DNA of 40,696 nt from a virus (taxonomy: Duplodnaviria > Heunggongvirae > Uroviricota > Caudoviricetes), in the IMG/VR virus record IMGVR_UViG_2541047870_000003. One strand, 5' to 3'. The notes below the pieces were generated by a model. The model searched no databases, was not told the origin of the DNA, and saw only the letters and a list, made by a program, of their open reading frames with translations. Position numbers and translations under genes: made by a program. Below are positions 2,795 to 37,596 of the stretch, in pieces (position 1 is the first letter of the stretch; the number at the start of each line of letters is the position of its first letter).

Positions 2795-5387
2795 TTGCAT
2801 ATTCCTTAGCCCAGCGGGGCAGTGATAATGTCTTAATAGCTGGCCATTCATCGGTATTCAGGCAGTCAGACAGGGTTCGCAGATTGCGGTGATATTCCTG
2901 TTGACCTGCCAGTTTTGCTTCTTCGCCCATCATGAAAATTTCAACCGGATAACGTCCGCATTCAATAGTTGTGCTGGCAACCAGAAAAACGAAAGTTGGC
3001 TGCACTCCAAACTGTGCTTCATAACCGTCACTGTAGAATGCATCCTGAACGTGATAGCGGTAGTCGTAATAAGCGGTTTTGAATCGTTGAATATCCGCCG
3101 TAGTTTTCACGTCCATGATCCAGTGAAATTCAGGGATAATTTTGTCCGGACGGCACCGACACAAAATTCCTGTTTCAGGATCTTCCCAGTAAATTGATGA
3201 TTCAGCGTGTCCGGCGCTTTCAACAAGCCATTGCCCCAGCGGCAAAGCCATAACGCTCTGATACATGAGTTCAATTTTCCGGCCTTCTTCGGCAGTGATA
3301 ACCGTTTTTCCTGTGCTTGCGCATTCCCTCAGAAACGCTTTCTCTTCTTCTTTTCCGGAGTTTGTCCGGCGGTTAAATTCAGGTGCTACGATAAAGCGGT
3401 TACTGAATTCTTCCGGCTCAAGTACCCGGCAGTGGAAAGCGGTTCCTAAATCGAGCGTTTTTGTCTTTGTGGTGTCCACGGGGGCATTTTTACGCCACAA
3501 ATATAGTGCCGGAGTATCAGCAATGTCATCGAGCTGAGACTTACTGATACCGGGACCCGCGTGGTAATTCTCATTCGAAATTCCGTAATAAATACCTGGC
3601 TCTATGTCTTCTACGATTACGGGATCTGCGACTTCGCCAGTTTCATCACTGCAATCGCGATGCGGATCGCTGCCAGCATTCTCATTGTGCGGATGTTCAG
3701 CGCCTTCCATTTCCTCCGGATCATTTTCCTTAGCTTCAACCTGACTCTCTTCATCGAATGTTTCCTGGTATGTTGCGTCGCCCATCACCGCACCACAGTC
3801 AGGGCAGTTATCCCCGCCAGTCTGGCCGCAGGCATTGCAGGCTATTTCCGGTTCCTGTTGCACTACTGGCTCAGGTTGATTCATATCCGGGCTGGTTTTT
3901 TCCGTTTCTGGCTGGTTCTGGTACACACAATCGCGAGTCTGGATCCCCTTTACCCATTTCGGATCGTTCGGGTCGCTAATTCCGTCAACAAATTCACCAC
4001 GTGATGCAGCAAGCAATTTATCGGCATCGACAGGATTTTTTGATGGAATGTTTTTCCGGGCTTCATGGAGTTCTGCCCACAGTTCCTGATATTTCGCATC
4101 AACAGAATTTACCTGTGACTGAGCATCCAGCGGCTGCGTGTCCTGATGATGTTCAGTTGCGTCCGGTTCCATTGTTTCAGCCTCTCCCTGTTCAACTGCC
4201 GTTGTTCCAGATGGTTGCGGTTTTTCTTCATCATCCTGTTTTCCTTCTTCTGTTACTCGCTGCGGCATCGGGGCAGAGGAGCGACCGCAGGCAATATCCA
4301 CGATTTCCGGATCAGGGTTGGCATGATCGGTTTCAGTCAGTACTTTGTTCAGATATTCAGTGACGTGCGCGGGGATGACCTCGATCCCAATTGGTGCTTC
4401 TTTTACGGACGCAACCACGATGGCGCGGGAATAATCCAGCCCGCCAGGCATGGTGATGAATTTGTCGCGGAAAACAGAAAAGGGCGGTTTATTTTCAGCG
4501 ATAATTTCCTCAATGCGTTTAGCGTGTGCCGGATGAAGGTTATAGATGTCCAGATCCATTGAACGGGCCAGTACGCCAGTGGCTACGTCGCGCGCCAGTG
4601 ACGTCAGATCGTGTACGAAACCTTCGCCGCGATCGGTGAGGTTTCCGCCGCCAGCATTAGCACCGGAAGCCGTGCGAGTGATGTGTGAAACACGATTACC
4701 CTTCATCCACTCTTTTGTCAGCAGTCCTCGATCGGTGTAGTCAGCGTTCAGGTATGCTTCGAAAAAAGCAGTTATCAGTCCCAGGTTTGAATTACCAGGA
4801 TTAGGGAAAACTTTGTCAGTGTCACGAACCAGTTTGTGGAGTTCGCGAATTTCCAGCGGGTCGAGCAGGCTGGTTTTGTGGGAAACAGCCAGGGCAGTAA
4901 CAGCCGGTAGTTCTTCAGCCCGAGCAATGTGTAATGCCTGGAGTCCGTCGCGTGAAACGTGCGTTACCGGTTTTTCGCTGCCGTGTTGAGCAAGCCAACG
5001 AATGGGCAGTTCCTGGCCAGAAATTGGGAGTAGCATATTCTCCTCAATCTCAGTCATGTCTTCGCCGTTGACGTTGGTATTGCCTTGATAGTGAGCGTTG
5101 TCTGGTGCTGCTCCCGGTTTTAGTTCCCATGTCATGGAGTCTTTGCTGAGTTGATAGCGTTCACTCCAGGTAAAATCGATCTCACCTTCAGCGGGCAGGT
5201 CATTAACGACAGGAAAATTCGTGGCAACAGCTTTAAAATAGCTGCTCAGTTTTTTACCTGACTTAACGATCAGGTAGTCCAGAGTGGCACAGGTCGATTC
5301 AAAATCGTTGCTTGCCCACAGGACGACGTCAGGTTCACCGGATGATTTTTTCGCTTTCCGTAACAGGAAGAGTGGTTTTGTGCTCAT
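2787..5387 (-). CDS. recE: Exodeoxyribonuclease VIII (RecE), 866 aa
   Basis: 866-aa ORF directly upstream of recT on same strand; length and acidic linker with Cys cluster ([16 protein letters not shown]) consistent with RecE as I recall it. Confidence 0.85.
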
Positions 5388-15195: not shown

Positions 15196-15454
15196 AAGTT
15201 CTTAAACTCAAAATGTTATCGCGGATAGATCTTTGTAGAGTCAGTGATTGGCGCAGGTAGGTGGTAACAGCAGACAAATAGCTGCGGATACTTGAGGCTA
15301 TCTGCCTCGGGCATGAACATCAAAGGCAGATAGAGAAAAGCCCCAGTTAACATTACGCATCCGGCAAGACGCTTAACATTAATCTGAGGCCAATTTCATG
15401 CTTTGCACATGTAGGTTAGCCTCTTACGTGCCGAAAGGCAAGGAGAAGCAGGCT

Positions 15455-15610
15455 ATGAAGCAGCAAAAGGCGATGTTAGTCGCCCTGATCGTCATCTGTT
15501 TAACCGTTATAGTGACGGTACTGGTAACGAGGAAAGACCTCTGCGAGGTACGAATCCGAACCGACCAGACGGAGGTCGCTGTCTTCACAGCTTACGAACT
15601 TGGGGAGTAA
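15455..15610 (+). CDS. hok: Hok-family type I toxin, 51 aa (MKQQKAMLVALIVICLTVIVTVLVTRKDLCEVRIRTDQTEVAVFTAYELGE)
   Basis: Near-identical to Hok/RelF-family sequences as I recall them; single TM helix; in-frame upstream extension (from 15398) resembles a mok-like leader; 10-bp inverted repeat at 15298-15341 upstream. Confidence 0.8.
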   Translation: MKQQKAMLVALIVICLTVIVTVLVTRKDLCEVRIRTDQTEVAVFTAYELGE

Positions 15611-17918: not shown

Positions 17919-17994
<76 letters not shown>

Positions 17995-17997
17995 TAT

Positions 17998-18072
<75 letters not shown>

Positions 18073-30843: not shown

Positions 30844-31239
30844 ATGATCACTTACGTGACCTGTGATGACGTTGATAATGCGTTTGGGAACGGCTGGACG
30901 AGTGAGAACGCTAAAAATAAAGCTGTTTTAATGGCTAATGCCTGGCTTAATGGCTTCAACCTGAAAATTAACCCATCCCGTATTCCGGAAGAGGTAAAAC
31001 TTGCGGGAGCATATGCAGCCAGAATTGCCTCATTCGGTAAGTTGTTTCAGCAGAAAAATGATTCTGGCGTTGTTATCAGTAAAGCCGTGTCGGCTGACGG
31101 GGTCAGTGTATCGAAATCATTTGCTGAGTTGCCAGCAAACAGCACTGCATTGCTTGAACCCGATTTACAGCTTGCGATAGCACTGCTGAAACCGTACGGA
31201 CTTAGTCGCTCACAAGTCAGGGTTGTGAGGGGGGGATAA
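30844..31239 (+). CDS. Head-tail connector / head completion protein (positional), 131 aa
   Basis: Position and size only. Confidence 0.45.
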   Translation: MITYVTCDDVDNAFGNGWTSENAKNKAVLMANAWLNGFNLKINPSRIPEEVKLAGAYAARIASFGKLFQQKNDSGVVISKAVSADGVSVSKSFAELPANSTALLEPDLQLAIALLKPYGLSRSQVRVVRGG

Positions 31240-31622
31240 TGGGGCTTCGTGAAGAGATTCAGTCAGAGGTTGCCGCTGCTTTTGATGAGGATTTAGCGGA
31301 CGCCGTGAGTGATTTTTCTGGTTCTTACGTTACGCACCGGCACTGGGATCCTGTGACGGAAACTGGTGGCGAATCCACCGCAATCTATACCGGGCGAGGC
31401 GTGTTGACACGTTATAAGCTGGGCAGAATTGATGGGATTAATATTTTGCATGGTGACCTTAAATTAACCGCTCTGGTATGCGAGGTTACGGATAAACCCG
31501 CTGTCGACCATATTATTGAGATTTATGATCCTGTATTAAGGCAGTTACAACGATACGAGGTAATTACAGCGAGTGTAGATCCTTCCGCATCAGTTTACTC
31601 TATCCAGTTAAGGAGAGCGTAA
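31239..31622 (+). CDS. Head-tail joining protein (positional), 127 aa
   Basis: ATGG start overlap with upstream gene; position only. Confidence 0.4.
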   Translation: MGLREEIQSEVAAAFDEDLADAVSDFSGSYVTHRHWDPVTETGGESTAIYTGRGVLTRYKLGRIDGINILHGDLKLTALVCEVTDKPAVDHIIEIYDPVLRQLQRYEVITASVDPSASVYSIQLRRA

Positions 31623-32418: not shown

Positions 32419-33381
32419 GTGAGTTCAGGTGCAAAGGTTATCTCGGCATTTATCCGGGAGACGGTTGCAGGCACTACGCCAGCAAGTGGTGACTGGAGTT
32501 TATTAAAACGCACAAGCTGGGGAGTAAAACCCACCCAGAATAAAGGCGAAAATAATGAGATTGGTGGCTCCCGGATGGCTCAGGGGGCGACGCCTGGCAC
32601 TGTGGATGTCGGCGGTGATGTTGGTACCAAATTTCGCTGGGGTCAACATGATGATTTTCTTGCATCCTGTTTCGGCGCGGAATGGTCAGGCGATTCTCTG
32701 ACAATGGGGAATGAGCGAATAACATTTTCTCTGGCGACCTATGCGTCCGATGTCGGAATTGCCTCTGTCGTCAGAGGAGCGCAGGTTGGCTCATGGAAAA
32801 TGCAGATCCCTAACGACGGCGATATTACAGCGACCGTAACCTTTGCCGGACTGGACTGGGAATCAAAGGCCGATGATACGAATTTTATCAAAGGCGAACC
32901 TGTGGATAGTGCAGGAAAGCTACGTTATTCGTTTAAGGAGGTTTCAGCAGTAAGCCTGAATGGTGTTGCCGGAGGTAACGGTTTTTGTATCGACAGTTTT
33001 GATATTCAGTTCGATAACAAACTCCAGACACAGCGTTGTATCGGGACTGGCTCGCCTTATGCAGGAGCAAATATTCCGACTACTTTTACACCGTCCGGTA
33101 CGGTGACGCTTTCATGGTCTAAAGCCGCGTGGGAAATCTGGAGTAAAACACTGACTGGAGAAACAGTTCCGTTCAGCTTCACGCTTTCGAATGGAGAGGG
33201 GGCATACACTTTCAGTTTCCCGAAGGTTCAGGTGTCAGGTGAATGGCCTGATGGGGGTAATAGCGACATTATCCAGGTTCAATTGAGCATTACCGCAGCA
33301 GATGAAGCACCTACGATAACCAGAAAAAAATGCTCCCCAACTGCCGTGATCGCAAAAGCCAGTGCTGATGCGATTAGTTGA
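32419..33381 (+). CDS. Major tail tube protein (positional), 320 aa
   Basis: Gly/Thr/Ser-rich protein directly upstream of chaperone pair and tape measure; followed by 8-bp hairpin CCCCCTGT/ACAGGGGG at 33395-33421. Confidence 0.55.
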   Translation: MSSGAKVISAFIRETVAGTTPASGDWSLLKRTSWGVKPTQNKGENNEIGGSRMAQGATPGTVDVGGDVGTKFRWGQHDDFLASCFGAEWSGDSLTMGNERITFSLATYASDVGIASVVRGAQVGSWKMQIPNDGDITATVTFAGLDWESKADDTNFIKGEPVDSAGKLRYSFKEVSAVSLNGVAGGNGFCIDSFDIQFDNKLQTQRCIGTGSPYAGANIPTTFTPSGTVTLSWSKAAWEIWSKTLTGETVPFSFTLSNGEGAYTFSFPKVQVSGEWPDGGNSDIIQVQLSITAADEAPTITRKKCSPTAVIAKASADAIS

Positions 33382-33429: not shown

Positions 33430-33891
33430 ATGAGGTTATGGATGTTTATTCTTAATCAGAAAATTATCATCGGTGGAGAACGCTGGTTTACGCCAATGAA
33501 GGACTTAAAACCTGTAGACGGGTTAAAACTGTTGGTGGCAAGCAGCGATAACGATCAGTATCGCTCCCGTAATGCATTAATCCGTCGTCACATTGAGAAA
33601 ATGGATGCCAGTTTGCACGTCGGAACGAAGGAGTTTGATATTTCAAAGGTTTCCGAGGTAGATTCTGTTGATGATTTACTCATTGATAATGCTGCTCGTT
33701 ATCTGCTGAAAGACTGGAAAGGGGTTGGTGAACTGGTTAATGGTGCTGAGGTTGCACTGGAATATACGCCAGAACGAGGGATCGCGCTGCTTAAGCAGAA
33801 TCCAGAGTTGTACTGGCAGATCCTTGCAGAAGCAGCCAGCATCGCCCAGGGTAAAGAGCAGCAGAAGCAGGATACGATAAAAAAGCCATAG
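33430..33891 (+). CDS. Tail assembly chaperone (lambda G analogue), 153 aa; ends just after slippery site A AAA AAG
   Basis: Position before tape measure; in-frame heptamer AAAAAAG at 33879-33885 three codons before the stop. Confidence 0.6.
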   Translation: MRLWMFILNQKIIIGGERWFTPMKDLKPVDGLKLLVASSDNDQYRSRNALIRRHIEKMDASLHVGTKEFDISKVSEVDSVDDLLIDNAARYLLKDWKGVGELVNGAEVALEYTPERGIALLKQNPELYWQILAEAASIAQGKEQQKQDTIKKP

Positions 33892-34199
33892 CCGCCCAGC
33901 GGTGGTTATCGGAGTTCGGGGGAGAAAGGGGGGAAAAGGCAAGATGGAAGCGAGAAAAACTCAGGTTGCCACCGATACCGGAACCAGAAATAGACCCGGT
34001 GCTTAAGGAATTGTTGTACGCCTATTCGGTAATATCCCGTGCCCGACGTTATGCTGGAATGACCGGGGTGCCTTTGCCTTTATCTCTGACAGAGATAAAT
34101 GAATATTTAGCCACTCATCCGGTATTGATTGAGCGCGATGAGTTTGAAGCAGTGATCTTTGCACTGGATGACCAGTATTTTCAGGATCAGTGTGTGTAG
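33885..34199 (+). CDS. -1 frame extension of the tail chaperone (lambda G-T analogue) by programmed frameshift
   Basis: The -1 frame is open from the slip site to 34199 (track ORF 33966-34199 is its 3' part). Confidence 0.55.
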   Translation, partial: AIAAQRWLSEFGGERGEKARWKREKLRLPPIPEPEIDPVLKELLYAYSVISRARRYAGMTGVPLPLSLTEINEYLATHPVLIERDEFEAVIFALDDQYFQDQCV

Positions 34200-34323
34200 T
34201 TGTTAATTACGTACACTCTGTTACAGAGATGTGATGGTGTCTTTAATTAAATCGATGATGCTCCTGGAGAAAAGCATTGCGTGGCCTCGTAATCGCTATA
34301 TCTACTATTATGTCGCCTGAAAC

Positions 34324-34346
34324 CCACTTCGGTGGGCTTTTTGTTG
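34324..34346 (+). terminator. Terminator-like hairpin (CCCAC-ttcg-GTGGG followed by CTTTTTGTTG) between chaperone and tape measure
   Basis: Seen directly. Confidence 0.4.
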
Positions 34347-34362
34347 TCTGGAGTTTTAATAA

Positions 34363-37300
34363 ATGGCAGAGCAAACCTCGCGTCTCGCAATAATTATTGA
34401 TAGCACTGGAGCAAAAAATAATGCTGACAATCTGACCTCCTCATTAGTCAAAATGACGCAGGCCGGGGAAACTGCTGCAAATAGCGCAGGGAAAGTGACT
34501 AAGGCAACAGAAGATGAGAAGAACGCGCTCGCAAAATTAAAAGCAGCTATTGATCCAGTTGGTGCCGCAATTGATACTGTCGGTCGACGCTATTCTGAAT
34601 TAAAGAAATTTTTCGATAAAGGGCTTATTGATAAAGAAGAATATGAATTTCTTGTCCGTAAACTTAATGAAACCACAGAGGAATTGAGCGGGGTTGCGCA
34701 AGCGCAGAGAGAAGCCGAGAAGGCCGGAAAACTTGCTGCCGCCCAGCAGGAAGCGCAGGCTCAGGCCTTTCAAAGAATGCTGGACAAGATCGACCCTCTG
34801 GCTGCGGCGCTAAGAAATCTTGAACAACAGCAGGATGAACTTAATGCTGCGTTTGCATCCGGGAAAATAAATGGTTCTCAGTTTGAGAATTATAGCCGAA
34901 AAATACAGGAAACACGGCGAGAGCTTACCGGAGAGGCTCAGGCAGAGCGAGAAGCAGCAAAAGCGCATGATGAACAGGTTGCTGCTTTGCAACGTCTGAT
35001 TGCTCAACTTGACCCTGTCGGAACTGCTTTTAATCGTCTGGTAGAACAACAGAAACAGCTCAATGAAGCAAAAGCTAAGGGGATGCTCTCTCCTGAAATG
35101 TATGAGGAACTTTCTGGAAAACTTCGTGCTATGCGGAGTGAGCTTGAGGTTACTCAATCTCAATTAAGCAAAACCGGAATGTCGGCAAAACAAACGGCTT
35201 TTGCTATGCGCATGTTGCCTGCACAAATGACGGATATTGTTGTTGGGTTGTCCACTGGTCAGTCGCCTTTTATGGTGTTAATGCAGCAGGGCGGCCAGCT
35301 AAAAGATATGTTCGGTGGGATTGGCCCGGCGATCAAAGGTGTTGGTTCTTATGTGCTGGGATTAATTAATCCTTTTACCCTGGCCGCAGCAGCCGTTGGC
35401 GTCTTAGGGCTGGCTTACTATAAAGGCTCTCAGGAGCAGGACGAATTTAATAAATCTCTTATTCTTACCGGAAATCAGTTGGGGACAACCAGCGGGCAAT
35501 TGGCCGATATAGCTCAACGTGCCGGGAATGCGGCTGATTCGACAACTGGCGCTGCGGCGGCAGTATTAAACCAGCTTGTGCGTTCGGGAAAGGTAGCGAG
35601 CAGTTCGCTGGAGCAAGTGACGACAGCGATAGTAAAAACGAGCGAAGTAACAGGAATATCAACCGAACAACTGGTTAATGACTTCAATGAAATTGCAAAG
35701 GATCCTGTCAGTGCCATATCAAAACTTAATGATCAGTACCATTTTCTGACAATTGCGACTTATAACCAGATTAAGGCGCTACAGGATGAAGGGAACCAGC
35801 AGGAGGCCGCCCGCATTGCGACAGAAGCATACTCATCCTCAATGATCCAGCGCACCAACCAGATTAAAGAAAATCTTGGTTATCTTGAGACTGCATGGAA
35901 AGCTGTCGCAGACTCCGCAAAATGGGCATGGGATTCCATGCTGGATATTGGCCGTGAGGCCTCCCTTGATCAAAAAATCTCAGATGTTCTCCGTCAAATT
36001 GATGAAATAGAAAAAAATACCCGACCCGGAGTTTTCGGGTTAGGTGGCATTGGAGATGGCGGAGCTCAAAATAAAAGGCTGGCACGATTAAAGCAGCAAT
36101 TGGGCGTACTTCAAGCAGAAAAAATTGCTCAGGACGTACTAAATTCATCAATAAACGATTACAACAAGCGACAACAGGAAGGAATTGAACTCAGACAGAG
36201 AGCAGATGCCTTTTCAAAACAATATCAGACCCGGGAGCAGCAGAGAGCTAGTGAACTTGCAAAACTGGAAAAACTAAAGAGTCAGTATTCAAAGGAAGAA
36301 TATAATAATCTTATCGCTCAAATAAATGAGCGTTATAAAGATCCAAAGCAACCAAAGGCGAAAGGTTATTCGGATGATGCTGCCCAACGAATGATTGATC
36401 ATCTGAATCAACAGAATGCGTTACTAAGTTCACAAACTGAATTAACCGTTAAATTAAGTTCCTCTGAACAGGAACTGGTTAAGTGGCGTCAGCAGATTGC
36501 CGACCTGGAGTCACGACCGTCATCGAAATTAACCAAGGATCAGAAATCGCTTCTCTTACACCGGGAAGAAATAACCGCGTTGATGGAGAAAAATGTTGCG
36601 ATTGAAAAAAATAACAGGCTAATCAAGGAATCCGCCGAAATAGCTGCATGGCGTGATTCATTGCAGGCTTCGATTGATAATCGTCAACAGGGGTATGATA
36701 TTCAGATTGCTGGTTATGGGGTTGGCGATAAAAATCAGCAACGCCAGCAGGAATTACTGCGGATTGAACGTGAATATAACAATCAGCGTCTGCAACTTGA
36801 ACGTGACTATGCAGATAAATCCCGTGGGATGTCAAATCATGTTTTTCAGGAGAAAATGCAGGCTCTGAATGATGCTCTGGAACGAGAAAAAGAAATTGTC
36901 AGACAGAAAAACGAGCAGCTCGATATTCAGGCAGGAGACTGGGTTAGTGGTGCCTCCCAGGGATTCAATAACTGGCTGGATGACACTAAGGATATCAGTG
37001 AGCAGATAAAATCAACCACGACTCAGATGTTTGATGGAATGACCGATGCGCTGGGTGATTTTGTCACGACAGGCAAGGCAAATTTTCGTTCTTTCGCTAC
37101 TTCCGTGATTTCGGATCTTAGTCGAATAGCATTAAAGGCTTCAATTACTCGGATTTTCGACAGCATTAGTAACAGTTCTTCGGGGGGGATTTTAGGAACT
37201 ATCGGGAGTGCTATTAGTAAATTTATTCCGAATGCAAAGGGCGGTGTTTATGAGTCTCCGTCATTGAACACGTATTCGAACGGTATTTATGATTCCCCGC

Positions 37301-37596
37301 AATTTTTTGCTTTTGCAAAAGGGGCTGGTGTTTTTGGTGAGGCTGGTCCGGAAGCCATTATGCCATTAACACGAACTTCCGATGGTTCTCTTGGTGTCAG
37401 AGCTATTAATAGTAAAAGTGGTAATGGAGGCGGAGATATTACCTATGCCCCTGTATACCAAATCACTATTCAAAATGACGGCCAGAATGGAGAGATTGGC
37501 CCTCAGGCAATAAAAGCACTTATGGGGATGGTTGATCAGCGGGTGCAGGGCAATCTGTTAAATATGCGACGTGATGGGGGAATGTTAAGTGGCTAA
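34363..37596 (+). CDS. H: Tail tape measure protein, 1077 aa
   Basis: Very long Ala/Gln/Glu-rich coiled-coil protein, then Gly-rich C-terminal region; position before M/L/K/I. Confidence 0.85.

Follow-up and report, generated by a model that had tools for sequence, protein, structure and literature searches.

The stretch of DNA analysed here, referred to as the window, is the IMG/VR record IMGVR_UViG_2541047870_000003 of 40,696 nucleotides (nt), which is a Rac-like Escherichia coli prophage of the siphovirus type; all coordinates are those of its + strand. The subject of the analysis is the tail assembly chaperone gene, designated G, together with the −1-frame segment that overlaps its 3′ end, designated T, and the heptamer located within the overlap. 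The gene order was found to be tail tube gene, G, T and tape measure gene. The features of the locus are as follows:

33442..33891, + strand: tail assembly chaperone gene G (0 frame), 149 amino acids (aa); matches PHROG 313
33855..33888, + strand: G/T overlap, from the first −1 codon past the TAA to the last 0-frame sense codon
33879..33885, + strand: slippery heptamer A_AAA_AAG, with a proposed tandem −1 slip of two tRNA-Lys; supported by its phase and its retention in 85 enterobacterial loci
33885..34199, + strand: T segment (−1 frame), 104 codons plus stop; supported by phrog_1189 and by codon-position divergence

The 0-frame open reading frame (ORF) was open through position 33891 from either ATG 33430 (153 aa) or ATG 33442 (149 aa). 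The latter is the preferred start of G, as a GAGG is located 6 nt 5′ of this ATG and the alignments with most homologs begin at residue 5. The 3′ end of the G ORF reads ...GAT ACG ATA AAA AAG CCA TAG, and the phase of the AAAAAAG at 33879-33885 is therefore A_AAA_AAG (X_XXY_YYZ), with a single sense codon (CCA) between the heptamer and the G stop codon at 33889-33891. A sequence-only reading of the window had placed A AAA AAG in the zero-frame phase three codons before the stop, which agrees with the position of the AAA codon three codons 5′ of the TAG. The −1 frame was open from 33855 to 34199 and was closed upstream by a TAA at 33852-33854. Since this frame is shut 5′ of 33855, a G-T fusion is possible only within the 34-nt overlap (33855-33888), where A_AAA_AAG was the sole X_XXY_YYZ motif. 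After a −1 slip, the next codon would be GCC at 33885, and the frame would continue for 104 sense codons in all to a TAG at 34197-34199, close to the roughly 105 further codons given in the same reading. The T segment translates as AIAAQRWLSEFGGERGEKARWKREKL...DDQYFQDQCV, and the predicted G-T junction peptide is ...QDTIKKAIAAQR... (...DTIKK/AIAAQR...). The predicted fusion product, GT, corresponds to join(33442..33885,33885..34199) and comprises 252 aa.

We consider it very probable (approximately 0.9), from the sequence features described here, that programmed −1 ribosomal frameshifting operates in the tail assembly chaperone gene of this Rac-like siphovirus prophage, making both G and GT. 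The slip itself, its frequency and the chaperone roles of the two products are the parts of this reading that we infer. The locus had earlier been described as the conserved G/G-T arrangement, and this description was upheld by the gene order, the phased heptamer in the overlap, the fit to PHROG 313, the selection acting on the −1 frame and the conservation in relatives.

The heptamer is not unusual as a bare sequence. The window contained 20 copies of AAAAAAG on both strands, compared with 15.1 ± 3.7 in shuffled sequences, and heptamer frequency was rejected as evidence because chance alone (approximately 15 expected) makes AAAAAAG as frequent as this. The 37 long ORFs of the window (10,677 codons) contained 56 in-phase X_XXY_YYZ heptamers, at only two of which the −1 frame outran the 0-frame stop by more than 100 codons: the site at 33879 and a G_GGG_GGA at 31230, at the end of the ORF 30844-31239. 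The latter was rejected as a second frameshift site, as the next head-tail gene (31239-31622) has its own ATG; it is an ordinary translationally coupled junction with an ATGA overlap at ATG 31239.

Family searches were performed with both parts of the predicted product. G matched the PHROG 313 profile, named tail assembly chaperone, with an E-value of 8.2e-47, and the T segment matched phrog_1189 with an E-value of 5.6e-36. The fused GT outscored G alone on PHROG 313 (176.6 versus 161 bits) and aligned over profile positions 13-245 of 258, from which it follows that PHROG 313 contains full-length G-T products. The T part also showed a weak, sub-threshold Pfam match to PF23812 (Phage_TAC_18), while no NCBIfam model matched GT and a PDB sequence search with GT revealed nothing meaningful. 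The AlphaFold model of G, built with 36 homologs, was of moderate confidence, with a mean predicted local distance difference test score (pLDDT) of 66.3 and a predicted template modelling score (pTM) of 0.62. Upon Foldseek comparison of this model with BFVD, the named matches were nearly all tail or tape-measure chaperones, and these matches speak for the chaperone reading, if weakly (E ~1e-4, template modelling scores of 0.4-0.5).

To describe the divergence of T, we used a codon alignment of 38 distinct T sequences and surveyed start codons in 28 distinct relatives. The mean pairwise divergence of T at −1-frame codon positions 1, 2 and 3 was 0.206, 0.138 and 0.437, respectively. In the first 27 T codons (33885-33965), which lie 5′ of any possible start codon in the window, the corresponding values were 0.139, 0.135 and 0.353, with 9, 9 and 23 variable columns at the three positions. 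The ratio of nonsynonymous to synonymous divergence (dN/dS) of T was 0.14-0.18 in pairs with unsaturated dS. This divergence pattern indicates that purifying selection acts on the −1 frame, starting with the codon that follows the heptamer. No relative had an ATG among T codons 1 to 45, nor was any start codon conserved there among the 28; the TTG at T codon 28 was confined to the E. coli clade. Because selection starts at the heptamer and T has no conserved start codon, translation of T must enter from G.

These observations bear directly on the way in which the region is treated in GenBank and RefSeq, where T appears as a separate small hypothetical protein; on that account there would be no frameshift, and T would be translated from its own start at TTG 33966 or 34014. 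Annotators do call an ORF of 61-66 aa in T, TTG 34014 has an AAGGA 4 nt upstream, and phrog_1189 is itself made up of separately called T ORFs. However, protein conservation and third-position-biased divergence begin right past the heptamer, 27 codons before any T start codon, the TTG codons are clade-specific, the Klebsiella phages lack any start codon in this region, and the fused sequence fits the phrog_313 profile continuously. We therefore regard a separately started T protein as highly unlikely.

Two small features inside T were also observed. A G-rich tract, GGGGGAGAAAGGGGGGAAAAGG (33920-33938; FGGERGEK in T), differed in run length among near-identical loci (L047 and L029 in our numbering of loci); L047 (~2995-3005) has one G fewer in this tract, which puts T out of frame and reflects either a pseudogene or a homopolymer sequencing error. 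Directly 3′ of this tract, which strongly resembles a Shine-Dalgarno (SD) sequence, there is a +1-frame ORF of 20 codons (33944-34006, ATG 33944) that is probably incidental to the coding of T.

The arrangement was then compared across relatives. The heptamer A_AAA_AAG was present in all 85 enterobacterial loci examined (G identity of 64-100%); these include 80 IMG/VR loci with a G that was 77-100% identical, all of which carried the in-phase heptamer and T in the −1 frame. Stops in the −1 frame of related phages would have counted against this reading, but the frame was open at approximately 80 of these 85 loci. The Klebsiella phages and the siphovirus 'Flyfo', at approximately 64-66% identity, have the same heptamer. 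In contrast to the heptamer, the 0-frame stop was found to move: it lies one codon past the heptamer in the clade of the window, seven codons past it in L069-L076 and 35 codons past it in L061-L067, where the TAG became TTG. Since the stop shifts while the heptamer stays, it is the heptamer and not its distance to the stop that is preserved. Overall, the G/T arrangement was kept from 100% down to approximately 30% identity across seven host genera (Escherichia, Salmonella, Klebsiella, Citrobacter, Erwinia, Pseudomonas and Acinetobacter), and the motif at the G/T site varied within the family among A_AAA_AAG, G_GGA_AAG, G_GAA_AAG and A_AAG_UAA.

In particular, the Acinetobacter phages (approximately 30-37% identity in T) carry the G_GGA_AAG of lambda in phase within a 34-codon overlap, and for one of them, phage TRS1 (NC_031098), GenBank annotates a two-part joined coding sequence (CDS). 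The Pseudomonas syringae phages (phiPSA1, MR15 and others; approximately 32%) have G_GAA_AAG at the homologous spot (...CTG GAA AAG CCA TTG...), and phiPSA1 and MR15 (L083/L088) show an additional out-of-phase GGGAAAG further on, at ~435-445. In Erwinia phage Gungnir39 (L082, ~1985-1995), the sequence is GCA_AAG_UAA, with an A_AAG tetramer adjoining the stop. Neither the Erwinia nor the Pseudomonas motif is a canonical X_XXY_YYZ heptamer, and both could be single-tRNA slip sites.

This variation also helps in weighing a fusion at the level of transcription, in which RNA polymerase would drop one A or add two in the A6 run. The site does have a run of six A, and slippage of RNA polymerase on homopolymers is known from Thermus dnaX and from some insertion sequence (IS) elements (reviewed in PMC5009743). 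For transcriptional slippage to be productive, however, a run of approximately nine or more A/T is normally required, and the six-A run falls below this. Moreover, the conserved element is the phased heptamer including its final G, and both G_GGA_AAG of the Acinetobacter phages, which lacks a long homopolymer, and G_GAA_AAG of the Pseudomonas phages fit re-pairing of tRNA rather than slippage of the polymerase. We consider transcriptional slippage extremely unlikely as the source of GT.

A few loci (L031, L033 and L047) showed indels or truncations in T, and P0001, a 240-aa protein from the databases (E. coli NB16F79_39920), was found to be a true in-frame G-T fusion with the junction ...QILAEA/GYDKKAIAAQ.... 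These cases, together with the fact that the family is named after ydaY, a gene of the defective Rac prophage in E. coli K-12, are what would speak for a decayed gene or a sequencing error, that is, one ORF split by a 1-nt indel in a cryptic prophage and without function. The window contains a perfect 10-nt direct repeat, GCAGAAGCAG, at 33826-33835 and 33861-33870, the copy starts being 35 nt apart. The fusion in P0001 arose by a 35-nt deletion between the GCAGAAGCAG repeats, which put G into the T frame, and thus does not represent an ancestral single ORF; judged from its sequence, that locus would make the fusion only and no free G. Against E. coli and Salmonella phage records, our 1-kb query showed 98-100% identity; among 5426 complete E. 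coli genomes, it matched the two-frame layout in 1075, the DNA identity being 80-100%. The recurrence of this layout, with its phased slippery motif, in so many genomes as well as in phage isolates of six further genera argues against decay, as does the purifying selection on the −1 frame, and we give the decayed-gene explanation almost no credence.

Programmed frameshifting, in our proposal, would proceed as follows. Most ribosomes would stay in the 0 frame and stop at 33889-33891, yielding G (149 aa) as the major product. A small fraction would pause with tRNA-Lys on AAA in the P site and on AAG in the A site of A_AAA_AAG, and both tRNA-Lys would slip back by one base onto AAA AAA. Translation would then resume at GCC 33885 and add 104 residues, giving GT (252 aa) as the minor product. 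In lambda, the tape measure protein is bound both by G and by the G portion of GT, and it is T that brings in the tube protein (PMC5009743). By analogy with lambda, many G and few GT molecules would coat the tape measure protein, the presumed client of both, while the T domain would recruit the tail tube protein; neither G nor GT would remain in the virion.

We also looked for elements that may stimulate the slip, and two candidates flank the heptamer:

33869..33872, + strand: SD-like AGGA, 6 nt 5′ of the heptamer; conserved in 20 of 20 distinct flanks
33888..33909, + strand: 9-bp hairpin AUAGCCGCC-CAGC-GGUGGUUAU, 2 nt 3′ of the heptamer; −14.7 kcal/mol, z −1.09

The role of the hairpin as a stimulator is doubtful, as it is not conserved, was no better than shuffled sequences (z −1.09) and was disrupted in L061-L067. 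Downstream folds gave z values of −1.09 and −0.58 over 45 nt and 100 nt, respectively. The consensus fold of 15 distinct relatives reached only −5.2 kcal/mol with no compensatory pairs and revealed no conserved stem-loop or pseudoknot, and a scan of the whole window at Rfam gathering thresholds found nothing at the G/T locus. The AGGA doubles as Gln-Asp/Glu coding sequence and is a possible weak modulator. In E. coli reporters, A_AAA_AAG and the lambda heptamer G_GGA_AAG performed nearly equally: without a stimulator, they gave 0.29% and 0.28% frameshifting, respectively; with the IS911 stimulators these values were 4.3% and 3.8%, and with the IS3 pseudoknot they were 39% and 43% (PMC4066793 supplement). 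Because no conserved stimulator was found, a low, lambda-like level of frameshifting is expected, and the slip frequency is probably below a few per cent. A different view would be that the E. coli clade gained its own stimulators (the 9-bp hairpin, the stop one codon past the heptamer and the AGGA), which jointly set a G:GT ratio clearly unlike that of lambda; we think this unlikely. If it were true, the motif variants of the family would form a natural series for the tuning of frameshift efficiency to tail stoichiometry.

The G/GT frameshift arrangement of long-tailed phages was reportedly described by Levin et al. in 1993 and by Xu et al. in 2004. Compared with lambda gpG/gpGT, which Levin, Hendrix and Casjens (1993) and Xu, Hendrix and Duda (2004, 2013, 2014) are reported to have studied (reviewed in PMC5009743), the window showed the same overall organization: two overlapping ORFs between the major tail protein and tape measure genes, a predicted −1 slip close to where G ends, on a heptamer of the V_VVA_AAG type, an extension of approximately 100 residues, no obvious stimulatory RNA and a lambda-like tail module. 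However, there were clear differences. No sequence similarity could be detected between G and T of the window and those of lambda, A_AAA_AAG takes the place of the lambda heptamer G_GGA_AAG, the stop lies one codon past the heptamer, and 163 nt separate the end of T from the tape measure gene, which T of lambda abuts. The pair TRS1_18/TRS1_19 of Acinetobacter phage vB_AbaS_TRS1 (NC_031098) is a distant true homolog with a T that is 37.5% identical and with the same gene order, but its G_GGA_AAG is located approximately 28 codons before the G stop, the overlap is 34 codons long, and extra genes are present between T and the tape measure gene.

The frameshift in E. coli dnaX (gamma/tau) reaches up to approximately 50%, and its shifted product is the shorter one, whereas GT is longer than G. 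The same A_AAA_AAG read by E. coli tRNA-Lys is used in dnaX and in IS911 and IS3 orfAB (PMC4066793, PMC4344849); these systems have strong flanking stimulators (an SD approximately 10 nt upstream, a stem-loop or a pseudoknot), none of which is conserved in the family of the window. A signal of the dnaX/IS3 type with an SD-like element 10-14 nt upstream is not matched here either, as the AGGA of the window lies only 6 nt upstream. Sharma et al. 2014 listed the cluster A_AAA_AAG_25, which contains ECs1801, the tail assembly chaperone of Sakai prophage Sp9, as 'safely inferred' frameshifting, and the ydaY family is missing from that list. ECs1801 resembles the present case: it is likewise a tail chaperone of an E. 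coli prophage, its A_AAA_AAG is conserved and its −1 product is the longer one. It was rejected as a member of the same family as G because BLASTP revealed no similarity between the proteins.

To see how the locus is currently annotated, we inspected E. coli, Salmonella and Klebsiella records, including L095 20133-20800 and L096 1493-2325 among others. The region appeared as 'protein YdaY' plus 'hypothetical protein', or T was not called at all, and a joined CDS was never present. The 'protein YdaY' of the Prokaryotic Genome Annotation Pipeline (PGAP) is 119 aa long and begins at an internal start (33532), following the 5′-truncated Rac relic of K-12, while the full ORF encodes 149 or 153 aa. 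In K-12 MG1655, that relic still has the heptamer in phase, and the region between ydaY and ynaA contains a T frame of 104 codons that is intact but unannotated. A literature search for ydaY together with frameshift found no link, a listing in the A_AAA_AAG survey of K-12 by Gurvich et al. 2003 being possible. The frameshift of the ydaY family is thus so far unannotated in the enterobacterial records inspected, but it is of the well-known G/GT type. The main value of the result lies in annotation, as the YdaY chaperone family occurs in about a fifth of the complete E. coli genomes (1075/5426); annotating the join given above would supply the GT product of the prophage and drop a spurious hypothetical protein. 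The family is one more case of a rule known since 1993 and 2004, and no concept is changed by it.

The remaining features belong to the surroundings of the locus:

32419..33381, + strand: major tail tube protein gene; PF18906 Phage_tube_2 (E 1.2e-31), phrog_290, PGAP 'phage tail tube protein' in an identical prophage
34323..34346, + strand: terminator-like hairpin (34323-34336) with T-run, in the spacer between T and the tape measure gene
34363..37596, + strand: tail length tape measure protein gene, 1077 aa; PF06791 (1.1e-81), PF09718 (1.3e-25), PF24622 (1.7e-24), phrog_24
1557-1735, 15286-15460, 17919-17991 and 17998-18069: Rfam matches to RalA, sok, tRNA and tRNA, respectively

The sequence-only reading had the −1 frame running up to the tape measure gene, which is incorrect: 34199 is the last position of the frame and 34363 the first of the tape measure gene, leaving a spacer of 163 nt (34200-34362). 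In relatives, this spacer ranged from 38 to 1783 nt and held zero to four small genes, including those for a membrane protein and a DUF4760 protein (variation seen in loci L010, L056, L075-L079 and L082-L093); from these sequences, it looks like a moron insertion site within the tail operon. The rest of the tail module was lambda-like, with homologs of M, L, K, I and J. At gathering score, Rfam revealed the RalA antitoxin small RNA (225 bits), the sok antitoxin RNA (99 bits) and two tRNA genes next to each other, as would fit a lambdoid prophage of the Rac type with toxin-antitoxin modules. The genome of E. coli 266917_2 shows no difference from the window across the 1-kb query, and PGAP lists its tape measure gene (L095 20964-24197) as a pseudogene on account of an 'internal stop'; the 1077-codon tape measure ORF of the window itself is open.
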